Notes: generated by a model not told the origin, from the sequence alone. DNA of 36,990 nt from Abditibacteriaceae bacterium (GCA_031425655.1 JANPJS010000040.1:1-36990), one strand, 5' to 3'. Positions 20,008-36,962 are shown, counted from the first letter of the stretch. A program made the numbers and translations.

Positions 20008-20035
20008 AAACGGCAAACCGCTTTGCCACCAAAAT

Positions 20036-20066
20036 AAAACGGGACGCGCAGTGCGCGTCCCGTTTT
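20036..20066 (+). terminator. Intrinsic terminator
   Basis: AAAACGGGACGCGCA-G-TGCGCGTCCCGTTTT. Confidence 0.8.
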
Positions 20067-20135
20067 GTCGTTGCGGTTGTCAAACTCTGGCCTACTGCGA
20101 TAATTAATTCAGTCCCCGATTTGAAGGAGAAAGCC

Positions 20136-21581: not shown

Positions 21582-21596
21582 AAGGTAATTTGAGCC

Positions 21597-22031
21597 ATGC
21601 AACATCGCGTTATCACCGCAGAAGAAGCCCGTCGCCTCTTGGTTTTGGGCGATAATCAAACGATTCGGCTCACCGGCGACGACACTAATGGCGCTTACAC
21701 GCTGATTGAGCAATACAATGATCCCGGCATCGGTGTGCCACCGCACGTTCACGCCAACGAAGACGAGACGTTTCATATCGCCGAAGGTCAAGTGACGTTC
21801 ACAATCGAGGACAACACCATCGTGGCCGAAGCGGGAACGACAGTTCATGTGCAGCGCGGCGTGCGACACTCGTTTATAGTGACGAGTGAAGGCAAAAGTC
21901 GCGTGATTCTCATCATTTCGCCGCCGGGCTTGGAAACGATGTTTGAAGAAATGCACAATTTGCCTGCCGGCCCGCCCGACATGGCGCAAATCAGCGAAAT
22001 CTGCGGGCGCTACGGCATTACTTTCGCGTAA
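21597..22031 (+). CDS. Cupin domain protein (quercetinase-like)
   Basis: PPHVHANEDETFHIAEG and VQRGVRHSF cupin motifs. Confidence 0.88.
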   Translation: MQHRVITAEEARRLLVLGDNQTIRLTGDDTNGAYTLIEQYNDPGIGVPPHVHANEDETFHIAEGQVTFTIEDNTIVAEAGTTVHVQRGVRHSFIVTSEGKSRVILIISPPGLETMFEEMHNLPAGPPDMAQISEICGRYGITFA

Positions 22032-22059
22032 AAAATCGTCTGCCAAATCAAGGACCTAA

Positions 22060-22902
22060 ATGCAAATTGGAATGAACTTGCTGTTATGGACGGCCAATCC
22101 CAGCGCCGAGCACGCCGAACTGATGGCAAAACTGCGCGGCATCGGCTACGAATTGGTCGAACTGCCGATTTTCGCTCCGGCGAATTTTCCCGTCGCCGAC
22201 GTGCGAAAAATTCTCACCGACAACGGCCTCGACGCCACCGCAACCGGCGCTTTGCCCGGCGATGCGACGCTGATTTCCGACGATGAAAACGCGGCGCGGC
22301 GCGGCGAGGAATACATGAAAGGCGCCATTGACGTGTGCGCCGAAATCGGCGCGGCGATTTTAGCAGGGCCGCTTTACCATCCGGTCGGCTCGTTTTCCGG
22401 CGTCGCGCCCACAACCGATGAAAAACAGCGTTACATCGAACGCCTGCGCCCATTGGCCGATCACGCGCAGTCAGTCGGTGTCAAGCTCGCCGTAGAGCCG
22501 CTCAATCGCTTTGAGACGCACTTTCTCAACACCTTAGCCGACGGCGCCGCTTTGGTGCGCGAGATCAATCATCCCGCCGTCGGCATTTTGTCCGACACGT
22601 TTCATCAGCACATCGAAGAGCGCAATTCCGCAGCGGCGTTGTTGGCTGCCGCAGACACCGTGATTCACGTTCACGCCAGCGAAAACCATCGCGGCACGCC
22701 CGGCAAAGGCCAAGTTGCGTGGAGCGAGTGGGCGAAAACTCTGCACGCGATGGGCTACGACAAGCGCGTGGTTATCGAAAGTTTCGGCGCAGGACTGCCC
22801 GAATTGGCCGCCGCCACGCGCGTTTGGCGCGATCTCACCGGCGACCCGTTGGTCTTAGCCGCCGATGCCTTACCGCACGTTCGGAAGTCTTTGGAGCAAT
22901 AA
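22060..22902 (+). CDS. Sugar phosphate isomerase/epimerase, D-psicose/D-tagatose 3-epimerase-like TIM barrel
   Basis: VEPLNRFETHFLNT, DTFHQHIEE, HVHASENHRGTPGKG and VIESF metal/catalytic motifs. Confidence 0.9.
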   Translation: MQIGMNLLLWTANPSAEHAELMAKLRGIGYELVELPIFAPANFPVADVRKILTDNGLDATATGALPGDATLISDDENAARRGEEYMKGAIDVCAEIGAAILAGPLYHPVGSFSGVAPTTDEKQRYIERLRPLADHAQSVGVKLAVEPLNRFETHFLNTLADGAALVREINHPAVGILSDTFHQHIEERNSAAALLAAADTVIHVHASENHRGTPGKGQVAWSEWAKTLHAMGYDKRVVIESFGAGLPELAAATRVWRDLTGDPLVLAADALPHVRKSLEQ

Positions 22903-22905
22903 CAG

Positions 22906-23301
22906 ATGCAGGCTGAAAAATCCACACGCCGCAAAACGCCTTTTGAAAAGAAACAGGACGTTTACGACAAAGACCATCGGGGAAATAAAGAGAATCCTCA
23001 TCGTTTTCGGAAGGGTAAGCCTCGGAAAAAGAAAGGTGTCAACCGCCAAGAGCGCAGCCGCACGCGCAATTTGATCCGCAATGCTATGCTTCACGCCGCC
23101 GAAGAAAATCTATCGGTGCCTTTATTAAAAACGATGGCAGAACCGATCCGGAGTTTTCCGTGGAAAGGTGCTTCAACCGTGCGTGACATTGTGGCTCGAA
23201 AAATTGAATGCCGCGCCCGACGGCAACAATTCAGCTTGTGGAAAAAGAAAAAATCCGCTGCCAGCGGAAATCCGAAGAATCCGTTGCCCGGCGATGTCTA
23301 A
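22906..23301 (+). CDS. Hypothetical highly basic protein
   Basis: ATG 3 nt after the epimerase stop; fills the gap to the next gene; very K/R-rich. Confidence 0.6.
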   Translation: MQAEKSTRRKTPFEKKQDVYDKDHRGNKENPHRFRKGKPRKKKGVNRQERSRTRNLIRNAMLHAAEENLSVPLLKTMAEPIRSFPWKGASTVRDIVARKIECRARRQQFSLWKKKKSAASGNPKNPLPGDV

Positions 23302-23328
23302 GTCGCCACAACCATAATTGGAGAAACC

Positions 23329-24162
23329 ATGAAATTCGCTTTAGCTGCGCTCGTCGCGGCCACTTTAGCTGTTCCCGCCATCGCGCAGGATGCACCGAAA
23401 CAACTCAAGGCGCTGCTGATCACCGGCGGCTGCTGCCACGATTACAAAGGCCAAAAAGACATCCTGAAAAATGGTCTGGAAAAGCGCCTTAACATCGTCG
23501 TAGATCAAATTCACAGCGATGACAAAGGCACCAAGCCGCCGCTACCGATCAACGGCAACGCCGATTACGCCAAAGGCTACGACATCGTCATTCACGACGA
23601 ATGCGCTGCCGACACCAACGATCAGGCGGTCGTGGAAGGTATTTTGAAGCCGCATCGCGACGGCATTCCCGGCATCAATTTGCACTGCGCCATGCACTCG
23701 TATCGCATCGGCAACCCCAACGAAATCGGCACCGTCGGCACGCCTCATAATTTCTGGTTCGATTATTTAGGTTTGCAATCCAGCGGACACGGCCCCCAAA
23801 AACCGATTGCCGTCGTTTATCTGCCCGAAGCCAACAGTGCCATCACCAAAGGTTTGGCGCATTGGACGACCGTCAACGAAGAGCTTTACAACAACATCCA
23901 GATTTTGCCTACGGCCAAACCGCTCGCGCGTGGATTGCAGGGCAACGGCGATAAAATCGGCCAGAACAACTCTGTAGTTGCGTGGACGAACGAATACGGC
24001 GAAAAGAAAACGCGCGTTTTCTCGACAGCCCTCGGCCACAACAACACAACCGTCGGCGACGACCGCTATCTCGATTTAGTATCGCGCGGCATCTTGTGGG
24101 CCTGCGACAAAATCAACGACGACGGCTCGCCCAAAACCGGCTACGCAGCGCCAGTCAAGTAA
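23329..24162 (+). CDS. Secreted ThuA-like (class I glutamine amidotransferase-like) domain protein, copy 1
   Basis: GGAG RBS; signal peptide; LLITGGCCHDY, NLHCAMHSY, NEELYN, RVFSTALGH, RGILWA. Confidence 0.88.
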   Translation: MKFALAALVAATLAVPAIAQDAPKQLKALLITGGCCHDYKGQKDILKNGLEKRLNIVVDQIHSDDKGTKPPLPINGNADYAKGYDIVIHDECAADTNDQAVVEGILKPHRDGIPGINLHCAMHSYRIGNPNEIGTVGTPHNFWFDYLGLQSSGHGPQKPIAVVYLPEANSAITKGLAHWTTVNEELYNNIQILPTAKPLARGLQGNGDKIGQNNSVVAWTNEYGEKKTRVFSTALGHNNTTVGDDRYLDLVSRGILWACDKINDDGSPKTGYAAPVK

Positions 24163-24174
24163 TTTGTGGAATTT

Positions 24175-25020
24175 ATGAAATTCGCTTTTGCCGCGTTCTG
24201 CGCCGTCGCGTTGTCGCTTCCTGCCGTCGCGCAGGAAGCACCGAAGCCACTTAAAGCTCTGCTGTTAACCGGCGGCTGTTGCCACGATTATAAAGCGCAA
24301 AAAGACATCTTGAAACAAGGTCTGGAAAAGCGCCTCAACATCGTCGTAGATCAAATTCACGTTGACGATAGCAGTAAAGCGCCGAAACTGCCGATTTACG
24401 GCAACGCCGATTACGCCAAAGGCTACGACATCGTGATTCACGACGAATGCGCCGGCGATGTCAATGCTCCGGCCACAATAGACGCCGTTTTGAAGCCGCA
24501 CCGCGACGGCATTCCCGGTGTGAATTTGCATTGTTCCGTTCACGCTTATCGCAGCGGCGACCGCAACAAAATCGCAGAAAAAGGTGAAGCCCGCGAGGCA
24601 TGGTTTGAATATCTCGGCCTGCAATCGCCCGGTCATGGCGCGCAAAGGCCCCTTTCCATCGCTTTTGTGCCCGAAATGGGTAGCCCGATCACCAAAGGCA
24701 TGGCCAATTGGACGACGACCAACGAAGAGCTTTACTGGAATCTCAAAATTTGGGACAGCGCCAAAACGCTCGCGCGTGGCACGCAGCAAAACGGCGACGC
24801 CGACACCAAAGAAGGCATTATTAAGAGCAACCCGGTTGTGGTTTGGACAAACGAATACGGCGAAAAGAAAACGCGGGTTTTCTCGACGACTATTGGCCAC
24901 AACAACACAACCGTCGGCGACGACCGCTATCTCGATTTGGTGGCGCGCGGCATCCTGTGGGCCTGCGACAAAATCAACGACGACGGCGCGCCCAAAACCG
25001 GCTACGCGGCAACGAAGTAG
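24175..25020 (+). CDS. Secreted ThuA-like domain protein, copy 2 (tandem paralog)
   Basis: Same architecture and motifs as copy 1, with long identical nucleotide blocks. Confidence 0.88.
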   Translation: MKFAFAAFCAVALSLPAVAQEAPKPLKALLLTGGCCHDYKAQKDILKQGLEKRLNIVVDQIHVDDSSKAPKLPIYGNADYAKGYDIVIHDECAGDVNAPATIDAVLKPHRDGIPGVNLHCSVHAYRSGDRNKIAEKGEAREAWFEYLGLQSPGHGAQRPLSIAFVPEMGSPITKGMANWTTTNEELYWNLKIWDSAKTLARGTQQNGDADTKEGIIKSNPVVVWTNEYGEKKTRVFSTTIGHNNTTVGDDRYLDLVARGILWACDKINDDGAPKTGYAATK

Positions 25021-25087: not shown

Positions 25088-26962
25088 CTACGGACTCACT
25101 TTATGAATGCGCCAATGCTGATTCAAACCGCCCGTTGTGCCCCAGTAAGCCCACTGTATAATCTGCGCGCCTTCGGCATTGATGCCATTAGGTTTATCCA
25201 ACACCAAACCGCTGTTTGTATTGGTTAGCCTGAAAAAACCGGCATCTACGGGCGTGATTTTCCAATGCTGATTGGATTTGCCGTTCGGGTCGTATTTGTC
25301 ACGATAAAGGTCAATGGCGCCGCCGTTTTCTATCGAACTGCCGATAACTTCCAGCACCAATCCATTGCGGCGATTGACGATTTTAAACACGCCGCCGCCC
25401 AATCCGACGAAGCGCCATTGCTGGGCCATGTCATCTTTGTCTTCGCGCGCCTGCACAACCGGCGTAGCGTCATTGAGCGCGCCATCTTTAGCTTTCAGCA
25501 CCAGACCATTTTGGCGGCTGTAAATTTTGAAATAATCGCGCGAATCAATGGCCGGAGTGCTGCTAAAACCCGCGCCCTTGATAACGAACGTCGTCACCGA
25601 TTTAGCAGGCGCGATGGCGACAAAATTCTTGGCGTCATTACCGTTAATCGGCAAAGCCGTCAGCTTTTCCAGATTCTGCGTCGGCGAAGTGCGGTAACTC
25701 GCTACGGAATCGCCGATGCGCGAAAAACCGGATAAATCGTAAGTAACGCGCGTTTCCTTTTCGCTGCTGTTGGTCGTCACGATGACGAGCGTGCGCGAAG
25801 CGGCATCCAGCGCCGCGACGGAATTCGGGTCGTCAATCGAGATAATTTGAAATTCGGGCCGAATAAACTTGCTGTATTGGCCCATCACCCAGTATTTTTT
25901 GTTGATTGTATAGGCGGTCGTGACCTGATCTTTTAACGGATTCTTTAGAAATCCCCAGCCGCCGGTGTTGTCCACGACCTGCCAGTAACTCCACGCCACA
26001 GCGTGCAAGTCGCGCAAATCTTTCAATATCACCCGCGACATGGTCAGGCCCGAAGCATCGTCGTCGCCGTATTCCGACATCCAAACTTCCTTGCCCGCTG
26101 CACCGGCCAACGTGGCAAGCTGCGTGCGGGCACTGCCGCCGTAGCTGTGCGCGTTGATGCGATTCAGCATCTTCAGCGCCGTTTCGTCGTAGGCGCGAAA
26201 TGTTCGCACGGCGTTGTCAATGGAGTTGTCGTCTGAGGCGGCGACTTGAGTGCGAAGTTTGGTTCGCGCCAAAGCGCCGCCGACGGCTTTGATTACGGCG
26301 TTTTGGTGCTCCGGCTCCACAAAACAGCCCTCCTGCCAGTGGCCGAATTTCCACCAGTTGCCATCCGGCTCGTTGAACGGCTCCAGCGTTTGAAAATTGA
26401 TGCTCCAAGCGTCGTGGAAGTGTTGCACCACGCCGACTAAATAATCGGCAAACTGTCCATCGGCCTCGTTTTTAAGGTTGTCCGTTCCGCCCTGATTTCC
26501 AGTCACGCTGCCGCTTTTAGTCATCCAATACGGAGGCGAATTGGAAAACGCTTCGAGTTGATTCGCTCCTTTAGCCATCGCCGCTTTGAGCATCCAGCGC
26601 TGATTGGCGTCGGCGTCCCAATTCCATTGCCCCGGCGCGCTCTGATAGCCCGGAACAGCGGCTCGATATTGCAAAAACTGCTTATTCGGCGCCAAATAAA
26701 GCGGATTTTCACCGCCTCCGATGTTATAGCGCACGATGTTAAGGCCAAGCCCTTTTTCCAAATCGAAGGTCTTTTCGACGTAATCGCGCCGCGCCGCGTC
26801 GGGAAATCCGCCGACGACGTGCGCCCACCACGCCAACGAAGTGCCCCAGCCCTTGAATTTTTGAAATTGCAGCGCCGGTTCCAGATGCGCGGCGTAATCG
26901 GCCCGCACGCCGCAAGCTAAAGTTAAAGTCATCCCAACAAGCATCGCACGAGATCGTTTCAC
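25088..26962 (-). CDS. GH30-family glycoside hydrolase (endo-beta-1,6-galactanase-like) with a C-terminal ricin-B/CBM13 domain
   Basis: GWGTSLAWWA, LGLNIVRYNIGGG, EAFSNSPPYWMT, EPFNEP (acid/base), WMSEYG (nucleophile); QQW, QHW and QHW ricin repeats. Start inferred at GTG 26962 (GAAGGA RBS, signal peptide). Confidence 0.88.
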   Translation of the reverse strand: MKRSRAMLVGMTLTLACGVRADYAAHLEPALQFQKFKGWGTSLAWWAHVVGGFPDAARRDYVEKTFDLEKGLGLNIVRYNIGGGENPLYLAPNKQFLQYRAAVPGYQSAPGQWNWDADANQRWMLKAAMAKGANQLEAFSNSPPYWMTKSGSVTGNQGGTDNLKNEADGQFADYLVGVVQHFHDAWSINFQTLEPFNEPDGNWWKFGHWQEGCFVEPEHQNAVIKAVGGALARTKLRTQVAASDDNSIDNAVRTFRAYDETALKMLNRINAHSYGGSARTQLATLAGAAGKEVWMSEYGDDDASGLTMSRVILKDLRDLHAVAWSYWQVVDNTGGWGFLKNPLKDQVTTAYTINKKYWVMGQYSKFIRPEFQIISIDDPNSVAALDAASRTLVIVTTNSSEKETRVTYDLSGFSRIGDSVASYRTSPTQNLEKLTALPINGNDAKNFVAIAPAKSVTTFVIKGAGFSSTPAIDSRDYFKIYSRQNGLVLKAKDGALNDATPVVQAREDKDDMAQQWRFVGLGGGVFKIVNRRNGLVLEVIGSSIENGGAIDLYRDKYDPNGKSNQHWKITPVDAGFFRLTNTNSGLVLDKPNGINAEGAQIIQWAYWGTTGGLNQHWRIHKVSP

Positions 26963-26989
26963 GAGAATTCCTTCACAGCTTTTATTAAA

Positions 26990-27046
26990 CGCAAAGGCGC
27001 AAAGGCACAAAGATTATTGATTTCTTTGTGACTTTGTGTCTTTGTG
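26990..27046. repeat. Inverted octamer tandem-repeat hairpin
   Basis: CGCAAAGG CGCAAAGG CACAAAG - 11 nt - CTTTGTGA CTTTGTGT CTTTGTG, between the GH76 and GH30 genes. Confidence 0.75.
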
Positions 27047-27065
27047 CTTAACGAACTTGAGCAGT

Positions 27066-28205
27066 TCACTTAAGCGCTTTGGCCGCTGCGAAAAAAGCGC
27101 GAGCAGCGCTGGCTTGATTGATGAGTTCGCACTTTTGCAGCGGCGCGATTTGTGGCTTGTGCCACGCATTGGGATAGCGATTCGCCGGGTCGCGCACTTG
27201 CTCGTGCAAAAACGTGAGGGCGCGCAAAACCTGCGGACGATAACGCGCTTTGCCTTCGATGTGGTCGCAGGCGAGCAGGCTTTCGACTAATAAATGCGCG
27301 AAGCGGCCTTCGTCTTTGAAGGCGCCGCTTTGCGGGTCTTGCCATTTTTTCAGCGAAGCATCCGCCATTTTTAAAGCCGCGATGCGATATTCGGCGGCTT
27401 TGGCCGGTTTGGGTTCTAAAATTGAGCGCAGCATCAGCGCGCGAAACGTCAGCGCGGTATTGTAAGACCACTTCGTTTTTTCGATTTTGCCGTCGAGCTT
27501 AATGTTGTCCCACATCAATTCGTCCATCGGATCACGCAAATTGGCCAGCGTCCAATCGAGAATCTTGTCGCCCCATTCACGGTAACGCGGTTGGCGCGTA
27601 ATGCGAAACATTTCGTAGCAGGCGACGGCGGCGGGCGCAGTGATACAAGTGTTTTTCGAGGCCTTATCGGATTCGCGCCAGTAAAGGCCGCCGCCCAATT
27701 TGCCGTCCCAGCCGCTCAAAATGTAGTCCAGAGTTTTGCGGGCGCGCGGCAAATACTTTTTGCCGCCAAAGTCGTTGTGGTCTTCGAGAAACGCCAGCGC
27801 AACCCACGCATTGTCGTCGTAATAGCGATCAACCGGCTTGGGAACCGGCGATACATCGTAGCCGGGCACAGGGCCAAGCGGATTCCAATAAATGTCCAAT
27901 TTTTCAACGTATTCGTCCAGCCAAGGCCGATACTTTTTGTCGCCTTGCGCCGCGCCGCCCAATGCAGTCAGCATCACGCCACCGCCCCACAAAAACGCAG
28001 GGCCGGATTTTTTGCCTTCGGCTTTCCAATCTTCGGTGTAGAGGCCTCGTTCGGGCAGATAAAAATCGCGGCGTGCCTGCTGCAAGGCTTCTTCGCCCCA
28101 AAGTTTCATCTGCGCGGCCTGCATCGCGTTATCATCGCGCGCGAACGACGGGGCCGCGCACAAATTGAAAGCGAGGAGCGCCACAATGAGAATGAATTTT
28201 TTCAT
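27066..28205 (-). CDS. Glycoside hydrolase family 76 (alpha-1,6-mannanase-like), secreted
   Basis: Signal peptide MKKFILIVALL; RYYDDNAW catalytic DD; GGGLYW, SKNTCITAP, KWSYN. Confidence 0.9.
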   Translation of the reverse strand: MKKFILIVALLAFNLCAAPSFARDDNAMQAAQMKLWGEEALQQARRDFYLPERGLYTEDWKAEGKKSGPAFLWGGGVMLTALGGAAQGDKKYRPWLDEYVEKLDIYWNPLGPVPGYDVSPVPKPVDRYYDDNAWVALAFLEDHNDFGGKKYLPRARKTLDYILSGWDGKLGGGLYWRESDKASKNTCITAPAAVACYEMFRITRQPRYREWGDKILDWTLANLRDPMDELMWDNIKLDGKIEKTKWSYNTALTFRALMLRSILEPKPAKAAEYRIAALKMADASLKKWQDPQSGAFKDEGRFAHLLVESLLACDHIEGKARYRPQVLRALTFLHEQVRDPANRYPNAWHKPQIAPLQKCELINQASAARAFFAAAKALK

Positions 28206-28301
28206 GTCCCCATTAGACCGCGTCACGCAAGAAAAGACACGCAGAATTTTTCGCGTGCCTCTAATAAAATTCAGTCCGCATTTCAAAAGCGATGAAGCGC
28301 A

Positions 28302-29099
28302 TCAGGGCTTTTGCGGCTCATTCAGCACCGGGACGAATTGAGTGCCGTTCCAATGACGAGGATCATCATTTCCGTAAACCACATGAGCGACTTTTTGCCA
28401 ACCGTTTCCAGTCCAGCCATAGGCTGTTTCGTCGTAGCGGACTGGGTCGGCTTCGCCATACACCAACGTCAAATTGCCTCTGCTATCGGGAGACCTAATA
28501 TCGCTTGAAGAAACAGTTGATGGGCTGACGGGATTGTAACCATCGAACCTGATAAACGCCTTTGATTGCAGATTTTCGAGGAGAACTCCATAAACGTCAA
28601 CTCGACCACCAAATATGCCGTCTCCATAATTGTCCGCGACTTGGAGATAAATCAGTGGTGTTGTTTTACGGACCAGATTGAGCCACAGCGTTTGAAAATC
28701 TATCCTCATTTTGTCTGTCTTATCAGATAGGCTACGCGTGAATTCGTAGCGAAGTATTCGATGCCATGATTTTTTGGCTCCAAACCGAATCAAGTCCAAG
28801 CACGAAGAGCGGCTCAGCGACCGCCGTTCTCCGACACGCACGCTACTTGTATCGTAGAAATGCGCCGCGAAGGTGTTTCTCCCCTGTTTGAACGTGCCAA
28901 AAAATCGCGTCGGCCCTGCTGTTTTCACACCTCGCCGAATTGCGACAGGCACCTTTTTACCATGCACGACTTTCGTTCCGACGTAATATACCGCATCTTC
29001 GGCTGCCGTCGAAACAGCCCCGACCATCAATGCGATACAAATCGGCACCAGTAGCAAGGACGGAGAATGAGCGAGTTTTAAAAAGTGTCGGCGTTTCAT
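28302..29099 (-). CDS. Hypothetical exported protein
   Basis: AGGA RBS; MKRRHFLK N-terminus followed by a hydrophobic stretch and an AxA-like site; beta-rich body; more A/T-rich than its neighbours. Confidence 0.65.
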   Translation of the reverse strand: MKRRHFLKLAHSPSLLLVPICIALMVGAVSTAAEDAVYYVGTKVVHGKKVPVAIRRGVKTAGPTRFFGTFKQGRNTFAAHFYDTSSVRVGERRSLSRSSCLDLIRFGAKKSWHRILRYEFTRSLSDKTDKMRIDFQTLWLNLVRKTTPLIYLQVADNYGDGIFGGRVDVYGVLLENLQSKAFIRFDGYNPVSPSTVSSSDIRSPDSRGNLTLVYGEADPVRYDETAYGWTGNGWQKVAHVVYGNDDPRHWNGTQFVPVLNEPQKP

Positions 29100-29125
29100 T
29101 TGTCCTGAGTGTGCGTCAATACCAA

Positions 29126-29159
29126 AAAAGCCGCATGGAATTGAATCCATGCGGCTTTT
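29126..29159 (-). terminator. Intrinsic terminator after the DUF1080 gene
   Basis: AAAAGCCGCATGGA-ATTGAA-TCCATGCGGCTTTT; 6-T run on the minus strand. Confidence 0.8.
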
Positions 29160-29190
29160 CGCGGCTCTCATTCAAATTTTCTGCGATTTG

Positions 29191-29925
29191 TTACGGAGCG
29201 GTTTTAAGCACGATGTCTTTGAACTGCACCGTCATCGGCGGGCCGGCGTGAAGTTGCAGCGCCAAGACGCCGGTCTTGGCGCCGACGGCGGTTTCGTCGG
29301 TAACGTCAACCGTGGCTTTGCCGTTGATGAAATGCTGAAGATGGTTGCCGTGCGCGACGATTTTGTAATCGTTCCAGTCGCCGGGCTTGATGGCGGCTTG
29401 AATATCTGCGGATTTGCCGACTTCGCCAGCTACTTCGATTTTTGGTTTATTGGGCGCGTCGCCTTCACGAATCACGACTTTCTGGCCGCGCTGCGCGAGA
29501 ATTCCGCGTCCTTTTTCTTCGTAAAGAATGCCCGAATAGGTTTTCCCGACCTCGAAATCGGCCTGATAGCCGGAAACAACCCAATTTTTGTCGTCCACAA
29601 CTTTGCTGCGATATTGCACGCCCGAATTGCCGGAGCCGTTGGCCAGCCCGTCTTTGTCCAGGATTTTGAACTTGAAATTCAACTCAAAATCGCCGACTTC
29701 GCCGATTTTGTCGCCGTCTTTCCAGACCAGAAACGTGTTGCCTTTGGCGACCTTTTCCGGTGTCGTTTTGCCGGTGATGGCGCCGTCCTGCACCGACCAC
29801 AGTTCCATGTTGCCGGCCCAGCCGGTCAGGTCTGTGCCGTTGAAAAGCTGCTTTTCAGCAGCGCGCGACGACGAGGCCGCGAGAAAAGTCAGTCCGAGAA
29901 CAGCCGCAGTTGCGATGATTTTCAT
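29191..29925 (-). CDS. DUF1080 (3-keto-disaccharide hydrolase family) secreted protein
   Basis: Signal peptide MKIIATAAVLG; LFNGTDLTGW, WSVQDGAITG, GNSGVQYRS, GYQAD, WNDYKI, GVLALQLH, VQFKDI. Confidence 0.92.
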   Translation of the reverse strand: MKIIATAAVLGLTFLAASSSRAAEKQLFNGTDLTGWAGNMELWSVQDGAITGKTTPEKVAKGNTFLVWKDGDKIGEVGDFELNFKFKILDKDGLANGSGNSGVQYRSKVVDDKNWVVSGYQADFEVGKTYSGILYEEKGRGILAQRGQKVVIREGDAPNKPKIEVAGEVGKSADIQAAIKPGDWNDYKIVAHGNHLQHFINGKATVDVTDETAVGAKTGVLALQLHAGPPMTVQFKDIVLKTAP

Positions 29926-29930
29926 GATAA

Positions 29931-30818
29931 TTAACGTCCTTTTGGGTCTTGATTGGCCTTGAGTTCTTCTTCGGTTACTTTCGATTCGACGCCTTTTTCC
30001 GGCACGTCCACTTTGGCCGTCCATAAAATCGCGTTCAAAACGGTTTTGCGCTGGTCATCGTTGCCCCAGCCTTTGTGATTATGCCCGCCGGTGAAACCGA
30101 AGCCGCGCCCGCCGTCGGGCCGTTCGACGGCCCACGCGACGTGCTGCGGCGTTTTGGCGGCGACTTCGGCGCGCACCGCGTCGTTGCCGCTGTGCGGGCC
30201 ATTGCCGCGCTGCATGGTGCTTTCGGGCGCAATCGCGGAGAGAATCGGCGTGACACCGGCCATACCGTCCTTGAAGCGCATATGAAAATACCATTCGTCG
30301 TTGGTGCTAAATGGCTTCACGCCGTTAGAAATCGGATGCTTGGGCATTTCCTTGAATTCCGCCGTCCAGTGCGGATTGACCGACCAATCGGTTTCAAAGT
30401 AGCCGCCGAGCCACTCTTTGAATTCCGGGCCGCCTTTGTCTTTGGGCACTTCGACGCCGTAATGCAGGCAGACAATGCCCGCGCCGCGCTTCATTTGCTC
30501 GCCGAGTTGCTTCAAGCGGTCGCCGCTGAGAGCAACATGGCCGCCGCCGCCGTCGCAATACATTACGATGGTGTCGGCCTTCGCCAATTCTTCGGGCGTG
30601 GGCCATGCAGCGCTGAGATGCACTTTGGTTTCGACTTGCGGCGCGTTTTCGTCGAGACACTTTTTCAGCAAAAGCAGGCCGGCGTTGTGTTCGTGCTGAC
30701 CCGGCCCGTGGCTGGGTTTTCCGGCGATCATCACCACGGATTTTTTGTCGGCAGCAAACGCGGAAGTGGTCATTAATGCTCCTAAAAGCAACAGAGAGGA
30801 GATGCGTTTCATGTTCAT
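29931..30818 (-). CDS. Secreted ThuA-like domain protein
   Basis: Signal peptide; IAGKPSHGPGQHEH, VCLHYGVE, DEWYFHMRF, GRGFGFTGGH, LNAILWTA. Confidence 0.88.
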   Translation of the reverse strand: MNMKRISSLLLLGALMTTSAFAADKKSVVMIAGKPSHGPGQHEHNAGLLLLKKCLDENAPQVETKVHLSAAWPTPEELAKADTIVMYCDGGGGHVALSGDRLKQLGEQMKRGAGIVCLHYGVEVPKDKGGPEFKEWLGGYFETDWSVNPHWTAEFKEMPKHPISNGVKPFSTNDEWYFHMRFKDGMAGVTPILSAIAPESTMQRGNGPHSGNDAVRAEVAAKTPQHVAWAVERPDGGRGFGFTGGHNHKGWGNDDQRKTVLNAILWTAKVDVPEKGVESKVTEEELKANQDPKGR

Positions 30819-30865
30819 GGTGGTGTTTTGAAAATTGCTGCGGGCGCAGGTTGCGTGTCGCCCCA

Positions 30866-30906
30866 AACAAAAAGCGGGACGAGAAATTCTCGTCCCGCTT
30901 TTTGTT
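30866..30906 (-). terminator. Intrinsic terminator-like hairpin after the MFS gene
   Basis: AACAAAAAGCGGGACGAGAA-A-TTCTCGTCCCGCTTTTTGTT, perfect 20-bp arms. Confidence 0.75.
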
Positions 30907-30920
30907 CCGCAACTTGGCTT

Positions 30921-32564
30921 TTACGCTTCTGTGGCAGCGGGAAGTCCGCCCGCCGCTTCATCGCCCGACAAATGCACGGCTTGATAACCGCCGCGCGATT
31001 TAAAGTAAAGCATCAAGCCGATGTAAGAAAGCAGCATGATAACCGGCAAGATCGAAATCGTAGCCAGCGCTTTCTGTTTGGCGTCTTTTTCCGTCGAGGT
31101 GACGGCATCCTGTTCGCTGGCCGGCAAGGTCTTCACAGCGTCCGCGTCTACTTTGGTGTAGCCGCCCAAAACGTAAGTGTCCGCTTTGGAAACCTTCTGA
31201 TAAGTGCCGGGAGATTTCGCATTGATGGCTTGTTGCCACGAATCTTCCTGCATTTTTCCAATCAGGGGCGAGCCGATGATGCCGACGGTCAGCATTCCGA
31301 TACCGGCAATGGCGTTCAATGTGAGCGCGCCGCCTTTGGGAAACTGCTCGCTCACAATGCCCAGCGTGGTCGGCCAAAAGAAGCTTTTGCCGATGCCGTA
31401 GAGCGTCGCCGCGAAAAAGATAAAGGCCAGACCGGAAGCGCCCGCAAGCAGGTTCAGGCCGATGATGGCGAGGACGGAACAAAGCATCAACAGGCCCAGA
31501 GGCGTCAGTTTTTCAATGAGCGGGCCGGCGGCGAAAAAGCGCAGCGCCATCATGATGGCCGAGGTGTAAACCAGAACCCAGGCCGGATTGAGGCCGCCTT
31601 CTTTCATCGGCCCTTCCATCAAGCCGCCGATAGCGCCGTCGGTGCCCAGTTCGGTGATGGCCAACGGCATCATAATCAGGCAGAGCACAATCATCAGCGG
31701 GCGTCCCAACGAACGCGCGTAAAGACCGTAACCGACAGCCGTCGCGGCCACCAATATCATCGTGACCGCATCGCCCCATTTGAAGACGTTGCCCAATTCC
31801 TTGAACATCAAATAGGCGGCGATAGCAGCGCCGATGACGCCGAATTCGGCCAGCATTTCGCGGTAACTTGTGCCCGAAGCCACGCGTTCCTGAACCGGAA
31901 ATTTCGCAGGCCCCAGCATGATGAGGTAAACGATGGCCGGCAGCGCCAGCATATAAACCACGATGCGCCAATCGTTTTGCACTGCCTCGCCCAGAAAAAT
32001 CGTGATGATGCCGCCGATGACCAATCCCGCCGGCCATCCGGCGTGCAGAATGTTGAGCCACTTAGCTTTCTGACGACTAAACAACGTGGCGACAACCGGG
32101 TTGATAAACGCCTCAACGGTGCCGTTGCCCAAGCCCAGCACGACCGAACCCCAATAAAGATAGCCCCATGCCTGCGCCTGCGCGCTGGCCAGAGCTTCGC
32201 CGGTTAGAGTTGTGCCGGTATGCACCAGGCCATAGGCTTGAAGCACCATAACCGCGTAAATCACGTAACAAACCGCGCTGAAAAACATTGCGGCTTTGTA
32301 GCCGATGCGGTCAATGATGAAGCTGAAAAGAATGATGCTGATGGCAAAGGGCCACAATCCGGCACCAAATAGCTCGCCCGATTTCACAGGCGACAGGCCA
32401 AAATCCTTCGGCCACAAATCGGGGTTGTTGATGAGAATCGCGCGCGTGATAAACGCGGTGGACGTGGTAATCAGGGCCATAAAGCAGCCCCAGAACAACT
32501 TCATGTCTGCGGCGCTGACGGGCGGCGCGGGCGTGGACGACGTTGATTTATCGGACGACAACAT
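30921..32564 (-). CDS. MFS transporter (sugar/glycoside permease-like)
   Basis: AAGGAG RBS at MLSSDKS; many TM helices; IIDRIGYK, GLGNGTVEAFINP, NILHAGWPAG, YGIGKSFFWPTTLG. Confidence 0.9.
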   Translation of the reverse strand: MLSSDKSTSSTPAPPVSAADMKLFWGCFMALITTSTAFITRAILINNPDLWPKDFGLSPVKSGELFGAGLWPFAISIILFSFIIDRIGYKAAMFFSAVCYVIYAVMVLQAYGLVHTGTTLTGEALASAQAQAWGYLYWGSVVLGLGNGTVEAFINPVVATLFSRQKAKWLNILHAGWPAGLVIGGIITIFLGEAVQNDWRIVVYMLALPAIVYLIMLGPAKFPVQERVASGTSYREMLAEFGVIGAAIAAYLMFKELGNVFKWGDAVTMILVAATAVGYGLYARSLGRPLMIVLCLIMMPLAITELGTDGAIGGLMEGPMKEGGLNPAWVLVYTSAIMMALRFFAAGPLIEKLTPLGLLMLCSVLAIIGLNLLAGASGLAFIFFAATLYGIGKSFFWPTTLGIVSEQFPKGGALTLNAIAGIGMLTVGIIGSPLIGKMQEDSWQQAINAKSPGTYQKVSKADTYVLGGYTKVDADAVKTLPASEQDAVTSTEKDAKQKALATISILPVIMLLSYIGLMLYFKSRGGYQAVHLSGDEAAGGLPAATEA

Positions 32565-32625
32565 AGTCTCTCCTTGATGACGGCGAATAAAATAAACGAC
32601 AAAACGGCGCGGGGGTGTTGGGAAA

Positions 32626-32654
32626 ATTGTATCCCTCCCCGCGCCGCAATTCAA
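32626..32654 (-). promoter_or_regulatory. Putative internal sigma70 promoter for the MFS gene
   Basis: TTGAAT-N17-TACAAT on the minus strand, immediately after the long hairpin. Confidence 0.55.
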
Positions 32655-32724
32655 GTGACGAGCTACGAGTGACGAATGACGAGTAGGTGCTTTACTCGTC
32701 ATTCGTCACTCGTAGCTCGTCACT
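32654..32724. repeat. Perfect 32-bp inverted repeat composed of heptamer units
   Basis: AGTGACGAGCTACGAGTGACGAATGACGAGTA-GGTGCTT-TACTCGTCATTCGTCACTCGTAGCTCGTCACT. Confidence 0.92.
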
Positions 32725-32726
32725 CC

Positions 32727-34157
32727 TCAAACCGGTTTCGGTGCGTCACCCTGTTTTTTGAGTTCGTCAATCATTTCCTGGCTGACATCCACGCGATTGA
32801 CAACCGTTCTGCCCGGTCTTGCCACCGGCGGCGTGGGAACCGGCCCCCACTCGTGCTTGGCCTGAAAAAGTTTCTGCCCCGAATTGAGTAGGCTGTCCCA
32901 GCTAATCTGCTTGCCGGTGTAAGAACACTCGCGGCACAGAATGGCGGTCAGCGTGCTTTCGGCAACGGCAACGCCCTCGTTGAGCGGCTTGCCGGCTTTG
33001 ATGCCGTTGATCATGTCAATGTGTTCTTGCTGATAAGCATCGCGCCCACCGCCCGGAGCCGCCCATTCCTTCTCGCCCTTGACCCAGATGCGGCTGGAGC
33101 AGTTGGAGGTGCCTTTGCTGCCCTGAATGAACTCGGAAACATTGCCCGCCGTGTTGTCCATGTGACGCGCGAAGGACAGCACTTTGACGCCGCCGGGATA
33201 AGTCAATTCCGTGGCAAAGTGATCGTAAATGTGGCCGAACTGCGGCTGCACACGGATTTGGCGCCCGCCCATGCCGACCGCTGACACCGGATGCGCGCCG
33301 ATGACCCAGTTCATCACGTCGAGGTTGTGCAAGTGCTGCTCTACGACAAGGTCGCCGCAAATCCAGGTGAAGTAATACCACTGGTTCATTTGCCATTCCA
33401 TGTCGTTTTTGTATTTATCGCGCCCGCCGCGATCCCACAGGCCACCCTGATTCCAGTAGCACTGTCCACTCACGATGTCGCCGATAGCGCCTTCCTTGAT
33501 CTTGTTGATCGTTTCGATGTAGCTCTTCTGATGGCGGCGCTGCGTGCCGGCGACAATGCTGAGCTTTTTCTCATCGGCCATTTTCGCGGCAGCCAAAATC
33601 TGTTGCACGCCCCACGCATCTACTCCAAACGGCTTTTCGGCGAAAACGTGCTTGCCTTTTTCAATCGCATACGCGACGTGAATCGGACGAAAGCCGGGCG
33701 GCGTGGCATGAACCATCAAGTCAATGCCGGAATCAATGACGCCTTTGTAAGCATCGAAGCCGCTGAAGCAACGCTCGTCGGGACAATCAACTTTGTCCTT
33801 GTATTTGGCGTCGTTTTTCACGCCGTTGCGGCTGCCTCCGGCCTTGTCGAAAGCGTCGCCGACGGCCCAAAGCTGCATTTCCGGCGCGGCGTCCAAACTT
33901 TCACGGACAGCGCCGTTGCCGCGTCCGCCGCAGCCAACCCAGCCGATTTTGATGCGGCCATTGCCCTGTGCGTGCGCGTAGTTGGTGCCCAGCGCGCCAT
34001 ACGCGCCGGCGAAAACGGCGGTGCTGGTTAGCAGTGTTGCGCCCTTGACGAAGTCGCGGCGCGACAAATCAGCAGCCGCTTCGTTGGCGACTGGCGGGAC
34101 TGTTTGAGGCGCTTCTTGCGGCGCTTCGTGTTGCGTGGTGTTTTCCTGATTTTCCAT
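32727..34157 (-). CDS. Tat-exported Gfo/Idh/MocA-family oxidoreductase
   Basis: AGGAAGG RBS; twin-arginine SRRDFVK and AHA cleavage site; GWVGCGGRGNGA Rossmann motif; ATPPGFRP, HVFAEKP, GTQRRH, GDLVVEQHLHNLD. Confidence 0.93.
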   Translation of the reverse strand: MENQENTTQHEAPQEAPQTVPPVANEAAADLSRRDFVKGATLLTSTAVFAGAYGALGTNYAHAQGNGRIKIGWVGCGGRGNGAVRESLDAAPEMQLWAVGDAFDKAGGSRNGVKNDAKYKDKVDCPDERCFSGFDAYKGVIDSGIDLMVHATPPGFRPIHVAYAIEKGKHVFAEKPFGVDAWGVQQILAAAKMADEKKLSIVAGTQRRHQKSYIETINKIKEGAIGDIVSGQCYWNQGGLWDRGGRDKYKNDMEWQMNQWYYFTWICGDLVVEQHLHNLDVMNWVIGAHPVSAVGMGGRQIRVQPQFGHIYDHFATELTYPGGVKVLSFARHMDNTAGNVSEFIQGSKGTSNCSSRIWVKGEKEWAAPGGGRDAYQQEHIDMINGIKAGKPLNEGVAVAESTLTAILCRECSYTGKQISWDSLLNSGQKLFQAKHEWGPVPTPPVARPGRTVVNRVDVSQEMIDELKKQGDAPKPV

Positions 34158-34215
34158 GAGTAAAATCCTTCCTAAAATTGTAAATGGCCGCACGAAGCGC
34201 CCATGTAACTCGTGT

Positions 34216-34647
34216 TTACAGTTCGTCAATCATGCGAATTCGTTCGATGTGGCGCCCGCCTTCAAAGGGCGTTTCGAGCCAGATTTTGACGATTTCGAGA
34301 GCAGTTTCTTCGCTGACCATACGTTGTCCGAGCGAAATGCAGTTGGCATCGTTGTGCAAACGAGACAAACGCGCCGATTCCAAATTCCAGCACACGGCGC
34401 AACGCACGCCGCGCACGCGGTTGGCGACCATCGCTTCGCCGTTGCCCGAACCGCCCAGCACAATCGCGCGCTCGGCTTCGCCATTGACGATAGCTTCGGC
34501 AGCGGGCCGCACATGAAGCGGATACGGCACAGCGGCCTCGGAGAACGCGCCTTTGTCCAACACTTCGTGGCCCAATTCCACAAGGAACTGCTTGATACGT
34601 TCCTTGTAAGCAAAACCGGCGTGGTCGGAACCGAGAGCGATCTTCAT
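34216..34647 (-). CDS. rpiB: Ribose-5-phosphate isomerase B (RpiB/LacA/LacB family)
   Basis: MKIALGSDHAG, GGSGNGE, ANRVRGVRCA, SRLHNDAN, FEGGRHIERI. Confidence 0.93.
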   Translation of the reverse strand: MKIALGSDHAGFAYKERIKQFLVELGHEVLDKGAFSEAAVPYPLHVRPAAEAIVNGEAERAIVLGGSGNGEAMVANRVRGVRCAVCWNLESARLSRLHNDANCISLGQRMVSEETALEIVKIWLETPFEGGRHIERIRMIDEL

Positions 34648-34649
34648 AA

Positions 34650-34724
34650 GAGTTTTGAGTTTTGAGTTTTGAGTTTTGAGTTGGCGGATTGGAACTCAAA
34701 ACTTAAAACTCAAAACTCATAATT
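34650..34724. repeat. Inverted heptamer tandem repeats (GAGTTTT)n / (AACTCAA)n
   Basis: GAGTTTT x4 + GAGTT (34650-34682), 10-nt loop, AACTCAA AACTTAA AACTCAA AACTCAT (34693-34720). Confidence 0.9.
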
Positions 34725-34729
34725 GCCGT

Positions 34730-35977
34730 TCAATCTTCTCGCACGATGCGGAATCCGGCGAAAGGGCCGTCGGCGAGCCACCATTTGCTTTTGGGTTTAT
34801 TGGGGTCGTGCCACGAGATTTCCTGCTTCGCGCGCCAGGCATTGTTTACTTTTTCGGCGGGCGCGGCAAACGAGCCGCCTTTCAATACGCCTTCGCCGTC
34901 GTAGCCCGTTACCCATTCACCGGCGTTGCCCAGCGTATCGTAAAGGCCCCACGCATTCGGCGCTTTTGCGCCGACAGAATGCGTCTTTTCTTCGGCATTT
35001 TCTTTAATCCAGCCCACCTTTTTCAGTTCATCAAGCGACATTTTGACGGGCGCGTTTCCAGCTAAGGCAGCGTATTCCCATTCGGCTTCGGTGGGAAGAC
35101 GGTATTTTTTGCCGGTTTTTTTCGAGAGCCACGCGCAATACATTTCCGCAGAATGGCGCGACAGACTGATGGCGGGAAAACCTTCGTGTCCGAAACCGCG
35201 ATCCGGCGCGCCATAAGGCAGGCTGGGGCGCGTTTTGCCGTCAATTTTGGCGCCTTCCTCGTCGCTCAGGTCGAGTTTGAACATGAATACGTCGAATTCA
35301 TCCCACGCCACTTCTTTCTGACCGATCCAGAACGATTTGACTGCGACTTCGTGCAACGCACCGGCATCTTTCGGGTTCGGAAGCATGACTTTGCCCGCCG
35401 GAACCTTCACCATTTTAAATTTCACCAGCGTGCCGGCGATTTTTTCTTCCTGAACCGTCACGCCCGCAGCGTTGGGCACAGCGACTACGGGCTTCATTGG
35501 CTGCGACGCGGGTTTGGCCGCCGGACTGGTCGTTGGTTTGGGGCCGGGCTTGGCGACAGGCTTGGCAGCCGCCACTCGGCTTTGAACTTGGACGGAGTTG
35601 ACGATTTTGGCGTTCGGCACCAGACGGCGAACGGTTTTTTCCGCTAATCCGCGCTGGGAAACATCGGCTACGAAACCGTTCAGAAATACGGTTTTATTGC
35701 CCCCGCTTGTGCCCACTGAAACGCGATGACCAGAGAGCGCGGATTGGGCGTTTAAGGCTTTGAGTAATGTAATCCCAAGCTGCTGAGACGGCGTTTTCGA
35801 GGCCGGTTTGCACGCTTGGCACACGGTTTTGCAAGCCGGTTTGGAAACCGCAGGCGCGGCGGTCACACTCAAAGCACTGCCAAAAGTGCAAAGAAGGGCT
35901 GTGGCTACCGCGCGAGAAGGGACGATGTTGGAAAGAACCAAGCGCATATCTTTATTGACGCCATTAAAACGGCGCAT
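34730..35977 (-). CDS. Exported BON-domain + formylglycine-generating-enzyme (SUMF1/FGE-sulfatase) fold protein lacking the FGE catalytic cysteines
   Basis: AGGAG RBS at 35977 (alternative start 35947); signal-like N-terminus; BON-like VFLNGFV...IVNSVQV; FGE motifs KMVKVPAG, FWIGQKEV, YRLPTEAEWEYAA, PNAWGLYDTLGNAGEW, LKGGSF, GFRIVR. Confidence 0.88.
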   Translation of the reverse strand: MRRFNGVNKDMRLVLSNIVPSRAVATALLCTFGSALSVTAAPAVSKPACKTVCQACKPASKTPSQQLGITLLKALNAQSALSGHRVSVGTSGGNKTVFLNGFVADVSQRGLAEKTVRRLVPNAKIVNSVQVQSRVAAAKPVAKPGPKPTTSPAAKPASQPMKPVVAVPNAAGVTVQEEKIAGTLVKFKMVKVPAGKVMLPNPKDAGALHEVAVKSFWIGQKEVAWDEFDVFMFKLDLSDEEGAKIDGKTRPSLPYGAPDRGFGHEGFPAISLSRHSAEMYCAWLSKKTGKKYRLPTEAEWEYAALAGNAPVKMSLDELKKVGWIKENAEEKTHSVGAKAPNAWGLYDTLGNAGEWVTGYDGEGVLKGGSFAAPAEKVNNAWRAKQEISWHDPNKPKSKWWLADGPFAGFRIVRED

Positions 35978-35990
35978 TATTTATCTCCTG

Positions 35991-36962
35991 ATGACGTGGG
36001 GAATTTCGCTGTGCCAGTTTACCTTGCGCGCGGAGGAGCGACAGCCGAATGTTGCTGCCAACGCCAGAATTCTTAGCTCGAAGTTAGACCGGTTCGAGTT
36101 TTCTGAGTTGCAGATGGGCGTGCGCGCTCGATTGGTGGTGTGGGCGCCTTCGCGCGAACGCGCCGAAAGCGCGTGCCGGCTGGCTTTTGCGCGCATGGCC
36201 GAACTTGAAAACAGCATGAGCGATTATCGCCCGCACAGCGAAATCAACCGTCTCGCTGCCCGCGCCGGAGGCCCGGCAGTGCCGATTAGCGCCGACTTGT
36301 TTTTCGTCCTCGCTCATGCTCAGCACATCGCGCGGCTCAGCGACGGCGCTTTCGATGTCACCATCGCGCCGCTGATTCAATTATGGCGCCGCGCCCGCAA
36401 AAGTAAAACACTGCCGCCGCCCGCCGAGCTTGCTCACGCCCGCGCGCTCGTCGGTTGGAAATACTTGCGGCTTGACCGAAAAAAACAGACTGCGCAGCTT
36501 ATCAAACACGGTATGAAACTCGATTTGGGCGGCATCGCCAAAGGCTACGCCGGCGACTGCGTGCTTGACGTTTTGCGCCGTCAGGGCATAAAACGCGCGC
36601 TTTTCGAGGCCGGAGGCGACATCGTGTTGGGCGATGCGCCGCCCGGACAGCGAGGCTGGAATATCGAAGTCGAAAACGCAGCGCCCAGCGCGCCGAAAAT
36701 GCTTTCCTTATCCAATTGCGCGGTTTCCACATCGGGCGATACCAACCAATTCGTCGTGATTGGCGGCAAGCGTTATTCGCACGTCGTCAATCCGAAAACC
36801 GGGCTGGGCCTGACCAATCGCGTCATCGTGACGGTCATCGCGCCGCGCGGCATGACAGCGGACGCGCTTTCCAAATTAGGTGTCGCCGATGAAAAGCATC
36901 GCCGCCGTTTGCTGCGCGCTTTTCCCGATGTTAAAGCGTATATTCGCCGCGTTAAATCTTAA
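35991..36962 (+). CDS. apbE: FAD:protein FMN transferase ApbE
   Basis: MG...SEINRL, SDGAFDVTIAPL, LDLGGIAKGY, EAGGDI, AVSTSGD, RYSHVVNPKTG, ADALS. Start uncertain (35925 ATG, 35955 TTG or 35991 ATG). Confidence 0.93.
   Translation: MTWGISLCQFTLRAEERQPNVAANARILSSKLDRFEFSELQMGVRARLVVWAPSRERAESACRLAFARMAELENSMSDYRPHSEINRLAARAGGPAVPISADLFFVLAHAQHIARLSDGAFDVTIAPLIQLWRRARKSKTLPPPAELAHARALVGWKYLRLDRKKQTAQLIKHGMKLDLGGIAKGYAGDCVLDVLRRQGIKRALFEAGGDIVLGDAPPGQRGWNIEVENAAPSAPKMLSLSNCAVSTSGDTNQFVVIGGKRYSHVVNPKTGLGLTNRVIVTVIAPRGMTADALSKLGVADEKHRRRLLRAFPDVKAYIRRVKS

Follow-up and report, generated by a model that had tools for sequence, protein, structure and literature searches.

ApbE enzymes attach flavin mononucleotide (FMN) to D-x-x-[S/T]-G-A-[S/T] sites, in which G-to-A or A-to-V changes merely halve flavinylation (PMC12052999). 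Known carriers include FMN_bind proteins (NqrC, RnfG, NosR, PceC, PplA), DUF2271, DUF3570, Flavodoxin_4 and FMN_red (PMC8238504, PMC11334425, PMC12052999). A second relevant group, the periplasmic Gul-type enzymes, hold nicotinamide adenine dinucleotide (NAD) tightly and stall in the reduced form; recycling occurs most likely on 3-ketoglucose and possibly on cytochromes (10.1101/2024.03.25.586180). Here, we investigated positions 29,191 to 36,962 of a 36,990-nucleotide stretch of DNA (the window) from an Abditibacteriaceae bacterium (GCA_031425655.1 JANPJS010000040.1:1-36990). We found that the conserved unit at this locus is three genes: apbE, a gene for an FGE-fold protein, and a gene for an exported Gfo/Idh/MocA dehydrogenase (Gfo). 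The three-gene module is real and widespread, and is likely a variant of ApbE-dependent extracytosolic electron transfer. We propose, with a probability of roughly 65%, that the dedicated ApbE flavinylates the FGE-fold protein at Ser252 and that the resulting flavoprotein takes hydride from the NAD(P)H of Gfo and passes electrons on.

The apbE gene (35925-36962, plus strand; Pfam ApbE, E 5e-71, 239.8 bits vs 25.6) encodes an FMN transferase belonging to a separate clade, one associated with the FGE-fold gene. Head-to-head with it on the minus strand lies the FGE-fold gene (34730-35977; Pfam FGE-sulfatase, E 3e-26), whose 415-residue SUMF1/PvdO-like product is secreted (signal-peptide-like N-termini were judged by eye throughout) and is the predicted ApbE substrate and electron carrier. 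The third core gene (32727-34157, minus strand; Pfam GFO_IDH_MocA) encodes a dehydrogenase that binds NAD(P), belongs to an uncharacterised clade and is exported by twin-arginine translocation (Tat; motif S-R-R-D-F-V-K). To follow these genes we built profiles on the window proteins plus loci related to them (A2 for FGE, 80 rows; A3 for ApbE, 53; A4 for Gfo, 55), searching the same 201 genomes of the host phylum with all three. We took Abditibacteriaceae and Armatimonadota as family and phylum of the host, since its closest named homolog belongs to the former and most of the other homologs to the latter. The FGE subfamily is present in 88 of the 201. Clade ApbE at 300 bits or more was detected in 86 genomes, every one of them FGE-positive, and an 87th copy, next to its FGE gene, is truncated where the contig ends; the 113 FGE-less genomes have none, the best score there being 271 bits. 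The two genes are head-to-head in 68 of these 87 genomes, an arrangement far above chance, otherwise within 6 kb in 9, on different contigs in 9, and 24 kb apart in 1. All 68 FGE-positive genomes outside the profile seeds encode clade ApbE, 52 of them head-to-head. The Gfo clade also occurs in 88/201 genomes, of which 86 are common to the FGE set.

The association extends to other bacteria. Among 151 Bacteroidota genomes drawn, 10 encode the FGE subfamily, and all 10 loci adjoin a Gfo gene; an adjacent clade ApbE is present at five, a more distant ApbE at two and no ApbE at three, and clade ApbE is absent from the remaining 141 genomes. Among the best 80 of 575 metagenome loci, many of them on short contigs, Gfo was found in 54 and apbE in 49 within 6.5 kb. 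A preliminary description of the window had noted the head-to-head pair and asked whether apbE, FGE, Gfo and DUF1080 genes co-occur as neighbors across genomes. The first three do co-occur (87/88 and 86/88 genomes), and apbE is indeed conserved next to its partners, but this does not hold for DUF1080 (1/37 phylum and 4/80 metagenome loci).

Where would ApbE act? The predicted flavinylation site is D246-G-K-T-R-P-S252 of the FGE-fold protein (35222-35242, minus strand; Ser codon 35222-35224), based on motif position and conservation. The canonical D-x-x-[ST]-G-A-[ST] motif occurs in no cluster protein, and none of its 32 genome-wide six-frame matches falls on this contig; two of these 32 open reading frames (ORFs) inspected by eye are DnaJ-like and pilin-like, and neither resembles a flavoprotein. 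Among the secreted cluster proteins, only the FGE-fold protein matches the looser pattern D-x-x-[ST]-x-x-[ST]; the other match in the cluster is in the MFS transporter, within an N-terminal tail that looks cytoplasmic. In 148 distinct homologous domains the terminal residue is always Ser (92) or Thr (56) and is always preceded by Pro (142) or Ala (6). From the first position onward the remaining composition is D 141; A 130; V/I 113; S/T 97, A 41; and R 115, G 22, H 7, giving a family consensus of D-A-[VI]-[STA]-R-P-[ST]-x-P-Y. In an earlier set of 128 domains, the terminal position was the sole column with pure Ser/Thr exchange, and the motif loop is coil in the AlphaFold2 (AF2) model of the domain. 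We infer that Ser252 very probably carries covalent FMN.

Some relatives have the canonical site at the same loop. DAISGAT or DAITGAT is found there in the library proteins P0242, P0247, P0259, P0261, P0315 and P0348, the canonical form is present in 3/20 Bacteroidales loci (L193, L197, L200), and Parabacteroides distasonis WP_008779407.1 has D-A-I-S-G-P-T. None of the 20 loci with Gly at -2 has a nearby apbE (2 more were excluded for short flanks). Of those with another residue at -2, 80/99 have apbE within 6.5 kb (26 excluded for short flanks), a share that is inflated, as loci with apbE were counted even when flanks were short. This pattern fits a scheme in which near-canonical sites would use a housekeeping ApbE and R-P sites would need a dedicated one, although the Gly forms all belong to a single lineage.

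Aligned to 7ESA, 6NXI, 1VRM and 5MGY, the window ApbE has the ApbE fold with the Asp-Ser-His triad and the DLGGIAKG and TSG segments. Counting residues from nt 36081, S218, H234 and D261 are shared by 53/53 clade members and match the Asp-Ser-His triad of PMC12052999. The clade, which we defined by a score gap and shared residues, is marked by D48, W-R103-x-A-R and Q223. D48 and W-R103 are present in 53/53 members, and the four solved ApbEs have W-G-F or W-H-I where the clade has W-R.

Domain fusions link the FGE domain both to ApbE and to cytochromes. One protein (P0331) carries ApbE and an FGE domain in a single chain, the same type of clue that was used for DUF2271 (PMC8238504); a search for longer homologs showed no ApbE fusion among the best 120, a list crowded by multi-FGE proteins. 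NapC/NirT-FGE fusions, in which the FGE domain follows a membrane-anchored cytochrome, are present in 21/151 genomes from a Bacteroidales-type order. We examined 20 of 26 such places, and all have four CxxCH motifs and a Gfo gene in the locus. In five other homologs, a PSCyt1 monohaem domain is fused to the FGE domain. The joining of two unrelated cytochrome types to one domain points to electron transfer.

Structure prediction brings the motif and ApbE together. When the FGE domain was modelled together with ApbE, flavin adenine dinucleotide (FAD) and Mg, the predicted complex reached a score of 0.76, vs 0.00 for the best control; the score mark is reached by 116/157 solved and 2/215 mismatched pairs, counts that apply only roughly to our own alignments and ligands. 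Across runs at least 92% of contacts agree, and the predicted local distance difference test (pLDDT) of the partner is at least 86. The best-resolved contacts place FGE D72-T75, within the motif, on ApbE 193-197, and the model interface includes FGE 70-81 on ApbE 193-199 and 215-223, the latter holding the triad Ser. ApbE is thus predicted, in these models, to bind the motif loop at its active site. Altogether, co-occurrence, the invariant Ser/Thr, the fusions and the predicted complex strongly support the suggestion, already made in the preliminary description, that the non-catalytic FGE-fold protein is an ApbE substrate and the redox partner of Gfo.

How would electrons move through such a module? 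In the mechanism we favor, the dedicated ApbE would attach FMN to Ser252 of the secreted FGE-fold protein, the flavinylated protein would take hydride from dehydrogenase-bound NAD(P)H, and it would then pass single electrons to haem or quinone (NADH -> FMN -> haem/quinone). Flavin is the usual adaptor between the two-electron chemistry of NAD(P)H and the one-electron chemistry of haems, and this would be why the haem-fused FGE form still keeps the flavin site. Given flavinylation, it is likely that the flavin oxidises the NAD(P)H of Gfo and hands the electrons to haem or quinone. We infer the contact between FGE-fold protein and dehydrogenase, the direction of flow (sugar oxidation) and the electron exit in the host; a sugar, glycoside or cyclitol is the probable substrate. 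The window FGE-fold protein has no fused haem. One candidate acceptor is an alternative complex III encoded elsewhere in the genome (L204:7194-19345, contig C73), in an operon for a pentahaem cytochrome, Fe-S subunit, NrfD, ActD and cytochrome c that also includes CtaA/UbiA-family and SCO genes. Separately, many host contigs carry ORFs of 800-1200 residues with two CxxCH motifs, dozens in all, which presumably resemble planctomycete-type cytochrome proteins.

The NapC/NirT fusions could also be read in the opposite direction. NapC/NirT cytochromes normally bring quinol electrons to periplasmic reductases, and electrons might therefore pass from quinol through NapC-type haems and FMN to NAD(P)+, reducing a keto-sugar or re-reducing Gfo. 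We consider this very unlikely. Transfer from menaquinol (about -75 mV) to NAD+ (about -320 mV) is strongly uphill, and most FGE members, including that of the window, lack a NapC domain.

The dehydrogenase is only distantly related to characterized enzymes. The preliminary description invoked oxidative 3-keto-glycoside cleavage for it, which stays an analogy, since the dehydrogenase is not a BT2158 orthologue: it scores 33.4 bits with the BT2158/AL3 profile NF058561 against a cut-off of 750, a Bacteroidales member scores 21 bits, and the clade profile gives 8TDF 41 bits. Among solved structures, inositol dehydrogenases come nearest, with weak similarity. Reoxidation of the exported cofactor by a partner, presented earlier as a necessity, is not obligatory either. 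Nasseri et al. propose recycling on 3-ketoglucose for the Gul enzymes, and an outside acceptor would therefore be useful rather than required.

An isolate, Fervidibacter sacchari, offers a parallel that cuts two ways. WP_259102025.1 (FGE family), WP_259102028.1 (ApbE) and WP_259102030.1 (a Tat Gfo called GH177) have near-consecutive accessions (PMC11535203), and from this and the residue signature the trio appears to be the same module. All three are transcribed, and FGE and Gfo are listed in the proteome table (PMC11535203 supplement). Over eight substrates, their transcripts give Spearman values of 0.83 for ApbE-Gfo and 0.62 for FGE-ApbE. The Gfo protein has W/Q/H residues like those of SiaHI, annotated as an exo-alpha-sialidase (PMC11535203 supplement); the window Gfo contains W-N-Q and VEQH, and on this signature and the like-arranged F. 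sacchari locus it likely falls in the class that dbCAN calls GH177. Gfo might then be a self-contained, NAD-cycling glycosidase (GH109/GH177) or a Gul-type oxidase working with the DUF1080 protein encoded in the same run, with the FGE-fold protein a non-redox scaffold or lectin and ApbE serving another target. The GH177 call and the shared residues speak for this, but it would leave unexplained the invariant Ser/Thr, the GAT forms, the fusions of the FGE domain to ApbE and to cytochromes and the lack of clade ApbE in all 113 FGE-less genomes. Moreover, SiaHI has been attributed no definite function (PMC4030854), all 31 F. sacchari GH109/177/179 proteins proved inactive on expression in E. coli (PMC11535203), and DUF1080 is rarely linked to the module. 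We therefore give this explanation little chance.

The FGE-fold protein comprises a signal peptide, a private BON-like insert (residues 72-132; 35582-35764, minus strand), a Pro/Ala/Lys linker and an FGE domain. Catalytic FGE/SUMF1 enzymes have a Cys pair after a GGS[FY] segment; the window sequence KGGSFAAPAEKV lacks Cys, and no conserved Cys was found at the GGSF segment in 128 domains. The protein had been introduced as a BON-FGE-fold protein, and only the FGE part of that name holds. As a functional part BON was rejected, scoring 23.6 bits against the Pfam PF04972 cut-off of 27, and the insert is in none of the 11 closest homologs listed. The AF2 model of the FGE domain has a pLDDT of 93.6, and its best Foldseek matches are Treponema denticola TvpA (2y3c) and PvdO (5hha); FGEs also match. 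Similarity to these PvdO/TvpA-type folds lies at E 1e-13 to 1e-11 with template-modelling (TM) scores of 0.6-0.7. An Atlas search returned FGE-sulfatase clusters only, and a single-protein scan of genome contigs turned up just 4 generic FGE loci, all of them lacking apbE and the motif. Some relatives are elaborated further. Motif-bearing FGE domains are fused to an FG-GAP-like repeat region in proteins of ~720 residues (L104, L120, L122; P0174, P0194, P0339). Some Armatimonadota (L169-L174, L180) encode two FGE paralogs, each adjoining a different Gfo subclade, with one apbE in common; the second paralog type, R-P-S-x-[SV]-Y-x-L-P-D, usually lies downstream of its own Gfo.

PvdO is also the nearest solved relative of the FGE-fold protein by sequence (E 4e-18), and it is required for a periplasmic oxidation (PMC6206403). 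This raises another explanation, that the FGE-fold protein is flavinylated and yet is itself a catalytic oxidoreductase acting on the Gfo product, with Gfo recycling its NAD internally, as exported Gfo enzymes able to use 3-ketoglucose could do. A substrate pocket could be formed by the invariant segments that the subfamily has elsewhere in the domain, D-P-Q-x-P-K-S-x-W-W among them. They could equally form a Gfo-binding surface, and the Gfo clade tracks the FGE subfamily (86/88; 20/20) more tightly than any lyase-type gene does. We regard PvdO-like catalysis as unlikely and prefer an FGE-fold protein that carries electrons from Gfo.

Several observations weigh against our proposal. Tested ApbE motifs do not extend to R-P in place of G-A, and 51/148 domains have Ala, Leu, Asn or Val at position -3. 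PvdO, which is not known as an ApbE substrate, aligns D-G-D-T-R-P-G at the motif; having T-R-P without the final hydroxyl, it suggests that T-R-P may be an older feature of the loop. No cofactor was detectable in purified PvdO (PMC6206403). The window ApbE has K265 at a position that is mostly Thr/Ser, with Lys in 4/53 members only, and the complex score may reflect the model's general learning of ApbE motifs. With regard to gene linkage, one FGE-positive genome (G027) lacks clade ApbE, apbE is missing within 6.5 kb in 19/99 non-Gly loci with enough flank, and the FGE and Gfo genes are unlinked in several genomes. The genomes are kin, so our counts are descriptive and do not represent independent events, and some metagenome profile rows are possibly from the same species as the 68 genomes outside the seeds. 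Finally, FGE and Gfo transcripts of F. sacchari correlate at only 0.36 (Spearman, n=8).

Could ApbE have a different substrate in this organism? The window is the entire contig C40 of a host genome in 327 contigs that is 97% complete. As noted from the window at the outset, no classical substrate gene is in sight. Profiles for FMN_bind and DUF2271 have no match in the host genome, with positive controls in 4 and 2 of 14 genomes; a DUF3570 profile also had no match, but its control was silent as well. Having apbE but neither an FMN_bind nor a DUF2271 match, the host counts as what PMC8238504 calls an 'orphan apbE' genome, a category making up 4% of the set in that paper. Near clade ApbE, the search for other candidate substrates yielded 1 canonical-motif match across 80 loci. 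A canonical substrate beyond position 36990 had been considered; that side is unreadable, as the contig ends 28 nt past the apbE stop, and three same-genus genomes have unrelated genes after apbE (peptidase M15, SelB and glycine zipper genes). The host encodes two apbE genes. The second, at L062:112-1320 (contig C263), is divergent and has a C-terminal extension; no substrate for it was recognised in the genome, and the contig breaks off on its upstream side. The window also carries dsbD (3258-5246, minus strand), 29 kb from apbE. DsbD has been linked to ApbE-DUF3570 systems (PMC8238504), and such neighbors are absent around this dsbD.

Four further genes complete the minus-strand run, and all seven genes named in the preliminary description are in place with Pfam support. 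They encode a secreted DUF1080/3keto-disac_hyd protein of the 3-ketoglycoside lyase/hydratase family (29191-29925; PF06439, E 7e-37), a secreted ThuA-like protein (29931-30818; Pfam ThuA), an MFS transporter (30921-32564; Pfam MFS_1) and an RpiB/LacAB sugar-phosphate isomerase (34216-34647; Pfam LacAB_rpiB, E 8.5e-52, above the TIGR01120 cut-off). A final explanation would make the entire run one conserved glycoside oxidation/elimination pathway with these four as integral parts. The run lies on one strand with gaps of 5-162 nt, and the order RpiB, MFS, ThuA, DUF1080 is kept in three same-genus genomes as far as contigs reach. Within the genus, such a pathway is compatible with our proposal. 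Beyond it, the four genes occur near FGE in at most 4/80 or 2/37 loci: RpiB in 2/37 phylum and 0/80 metagenome loci; MFS in 2/37, 0/80 and 1/10 Bacteroidota loci; ThuA in 1/37 and 3/80, to which Pfam adds 4 Bacteroidales loci; and DUF1080 as given above. These counts come from profiles seeded from the window proteins, which miss distant members. Gfo, moreover, is far from BT2158/AL3. It is thus extremely unlikely that the whole run is a conserved pathway, and the four genes, earlier grouped with the core, are better seen as accessory, RpiB at the genus level. They could, tentatively, handle the oxidised product in this genus.

The commoner fourth partner, compared with these four, is an AP_endonuc_2 TIM-barrel gene, near FGE in 10/37 phylum, 10/80 metagenome, 7/10 Bacteroidota and 16/20 loci. 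The window carries a gene of this family, the one most often beside the core elsewhere, in a converging sugar cluster (19866-25020, plus strand) with GH4, a cupin, a 131-residue ORF and two tandem ThuA paralogs. The minus-strand run itself extends beyond DUF1080 (25088-29171, gaps of 19, 96 and 55 nt) with a 289-residue ORF without a Pfam match and GH76 and GH30 genes with ricin lectin domains. These genes may share the module transcript and hint at a mannan- or galactan-derived substrate.

The 5' ends of the divergent pair overlap. The FGE gene likely starts at ATG 35977, preceded by AGGAG, and apbE at ATG 35925, which gives a signal-peptide-like N-terminus, likely a Sec signal; the longest apbE ORF runs from TTG 35808. 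The overlap between these starts is 53 nt, so each promoter would sit within the other gene. Stop-to-stop frames of the two genes overlap in many relatives too. Scanning for promoters and terminators gave counts close to those expected by chance (8 vs 4.2±2.1; 19 vs 16.2±4.3). Short tandem TCAAAAC repeats lie directly upstream of rpiB (34650-34680).

What would such a module mean for extracytosolic redox biology? The odds slightly favor a respiratory dehydrogenase of the periplasm, widespread and so far undescribed, in which NAD stays on the enzyme, a flavinylated FGE subunit feeds haems and quinone, and a branch of ApbE has co-evolved to recognize R-P-[ST], with D48 and R103 as candidate determinants of such a preference. 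If so, the ApbE recognition code would be widened to R-P-[ST] besides G-A-[ST], and part of the orphan apbE genomes would be accounted for. Our analysis points to a likely ApbE substrate in one class of orphan apbE genomes, predicts a second recognition code, and suggests a specific way in which a NAD-dependent dehydrogenase outside the cytoplasm could be reoxidised without a free NAD pool. Some glycosidases annotated as GH177 would be subunits of redox complexes, which would provide a testable reason for the inactivity of GH177-annotated Armatimonadota proteins when expressed alone (PMC11535203). The system is present in cultured bacteria, in Parabacteroides distasonis (WP_008779407.1) and apparently in F. 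sacchari. We found no description of an FGE-fold ApbE substrate in the literature searched, which covers few subscription papers; the terms FGE, sulfatase and GFO have no match in the main texts or small supplements of PMC8238504 and PMC11334425, a term search of PMC11036162, PMC13274419 and PMC4604654 yielded nothing of relevance beyond a size and locus tag for SiaHI, and the supp1 cluster table of PMC8238504 may list such clusters.

Among known systems, PvdO (5HHA) and 2Y3C have the fold and the periplasmic location of the FGE-fold protein, and PvdO is tied to an oxidation; unlike true FGE/SUMF1, the FGE-fold protein lacks the catalytic Cys pair, and unlike PvdO its family has an invariant Ser/Thr where PvdO has Gly. 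In LacABC, LacA is a GMC enzyme that depends on FAD and has a cytochrome subunit. The dehydrogenase of the module is instead a Rossmann protein of the NAD type, and a carrier of its own would hold the flavin. LacABC nevertheless resembles the module in periplasmic sugar oxidation by a multi-component dehydrogenase with DUF1080 beside it (PMC9007349). Gul and BT2156-BT2160 share the Tat-exported Gfo/Idh/MocA enzyme, with tightly bound NAD by analogy, and, at some loci, DUF1080 or TIM-barrel lyase-type neighbors (10.1101/2024.03.25.586180). The module Gfo is not their orthologue, as the NF058561 and 8TDF scores show, and the Gul clusters described in that work have no ApbE or FGE gene, with recycling on 3-ketoglucose proposed and cytochromes a mere possibility. 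With CAZy GH177 (Tannerella SiaHI) and the NAD-cycling GH109 glycosidases, the module Gfo likely has its dbCAN class in common, as a Tat Gfo protein in which W-x-Q and H stand where AmGH109A has Y226/H228/H259. SiaHI and the F. sacchari protein both lack the acid/base loop G-G-H-G-G of GH109 (PMC11535203 table). As with the known ApbE carriers, apbE adjoins the gene for a secreted D-x-x-[ST]-x-x-[ST] protein, an ApbE fusion occurs occasionally, cytochromes are linked and the triad is intact. Unlike those carriers, the acceptor here would be an FGE-fold protein with mostly R-P-[ST] at its site, served by a distinct ApbE clade and partnered with an NAD(P)-binding dehydrogenase.

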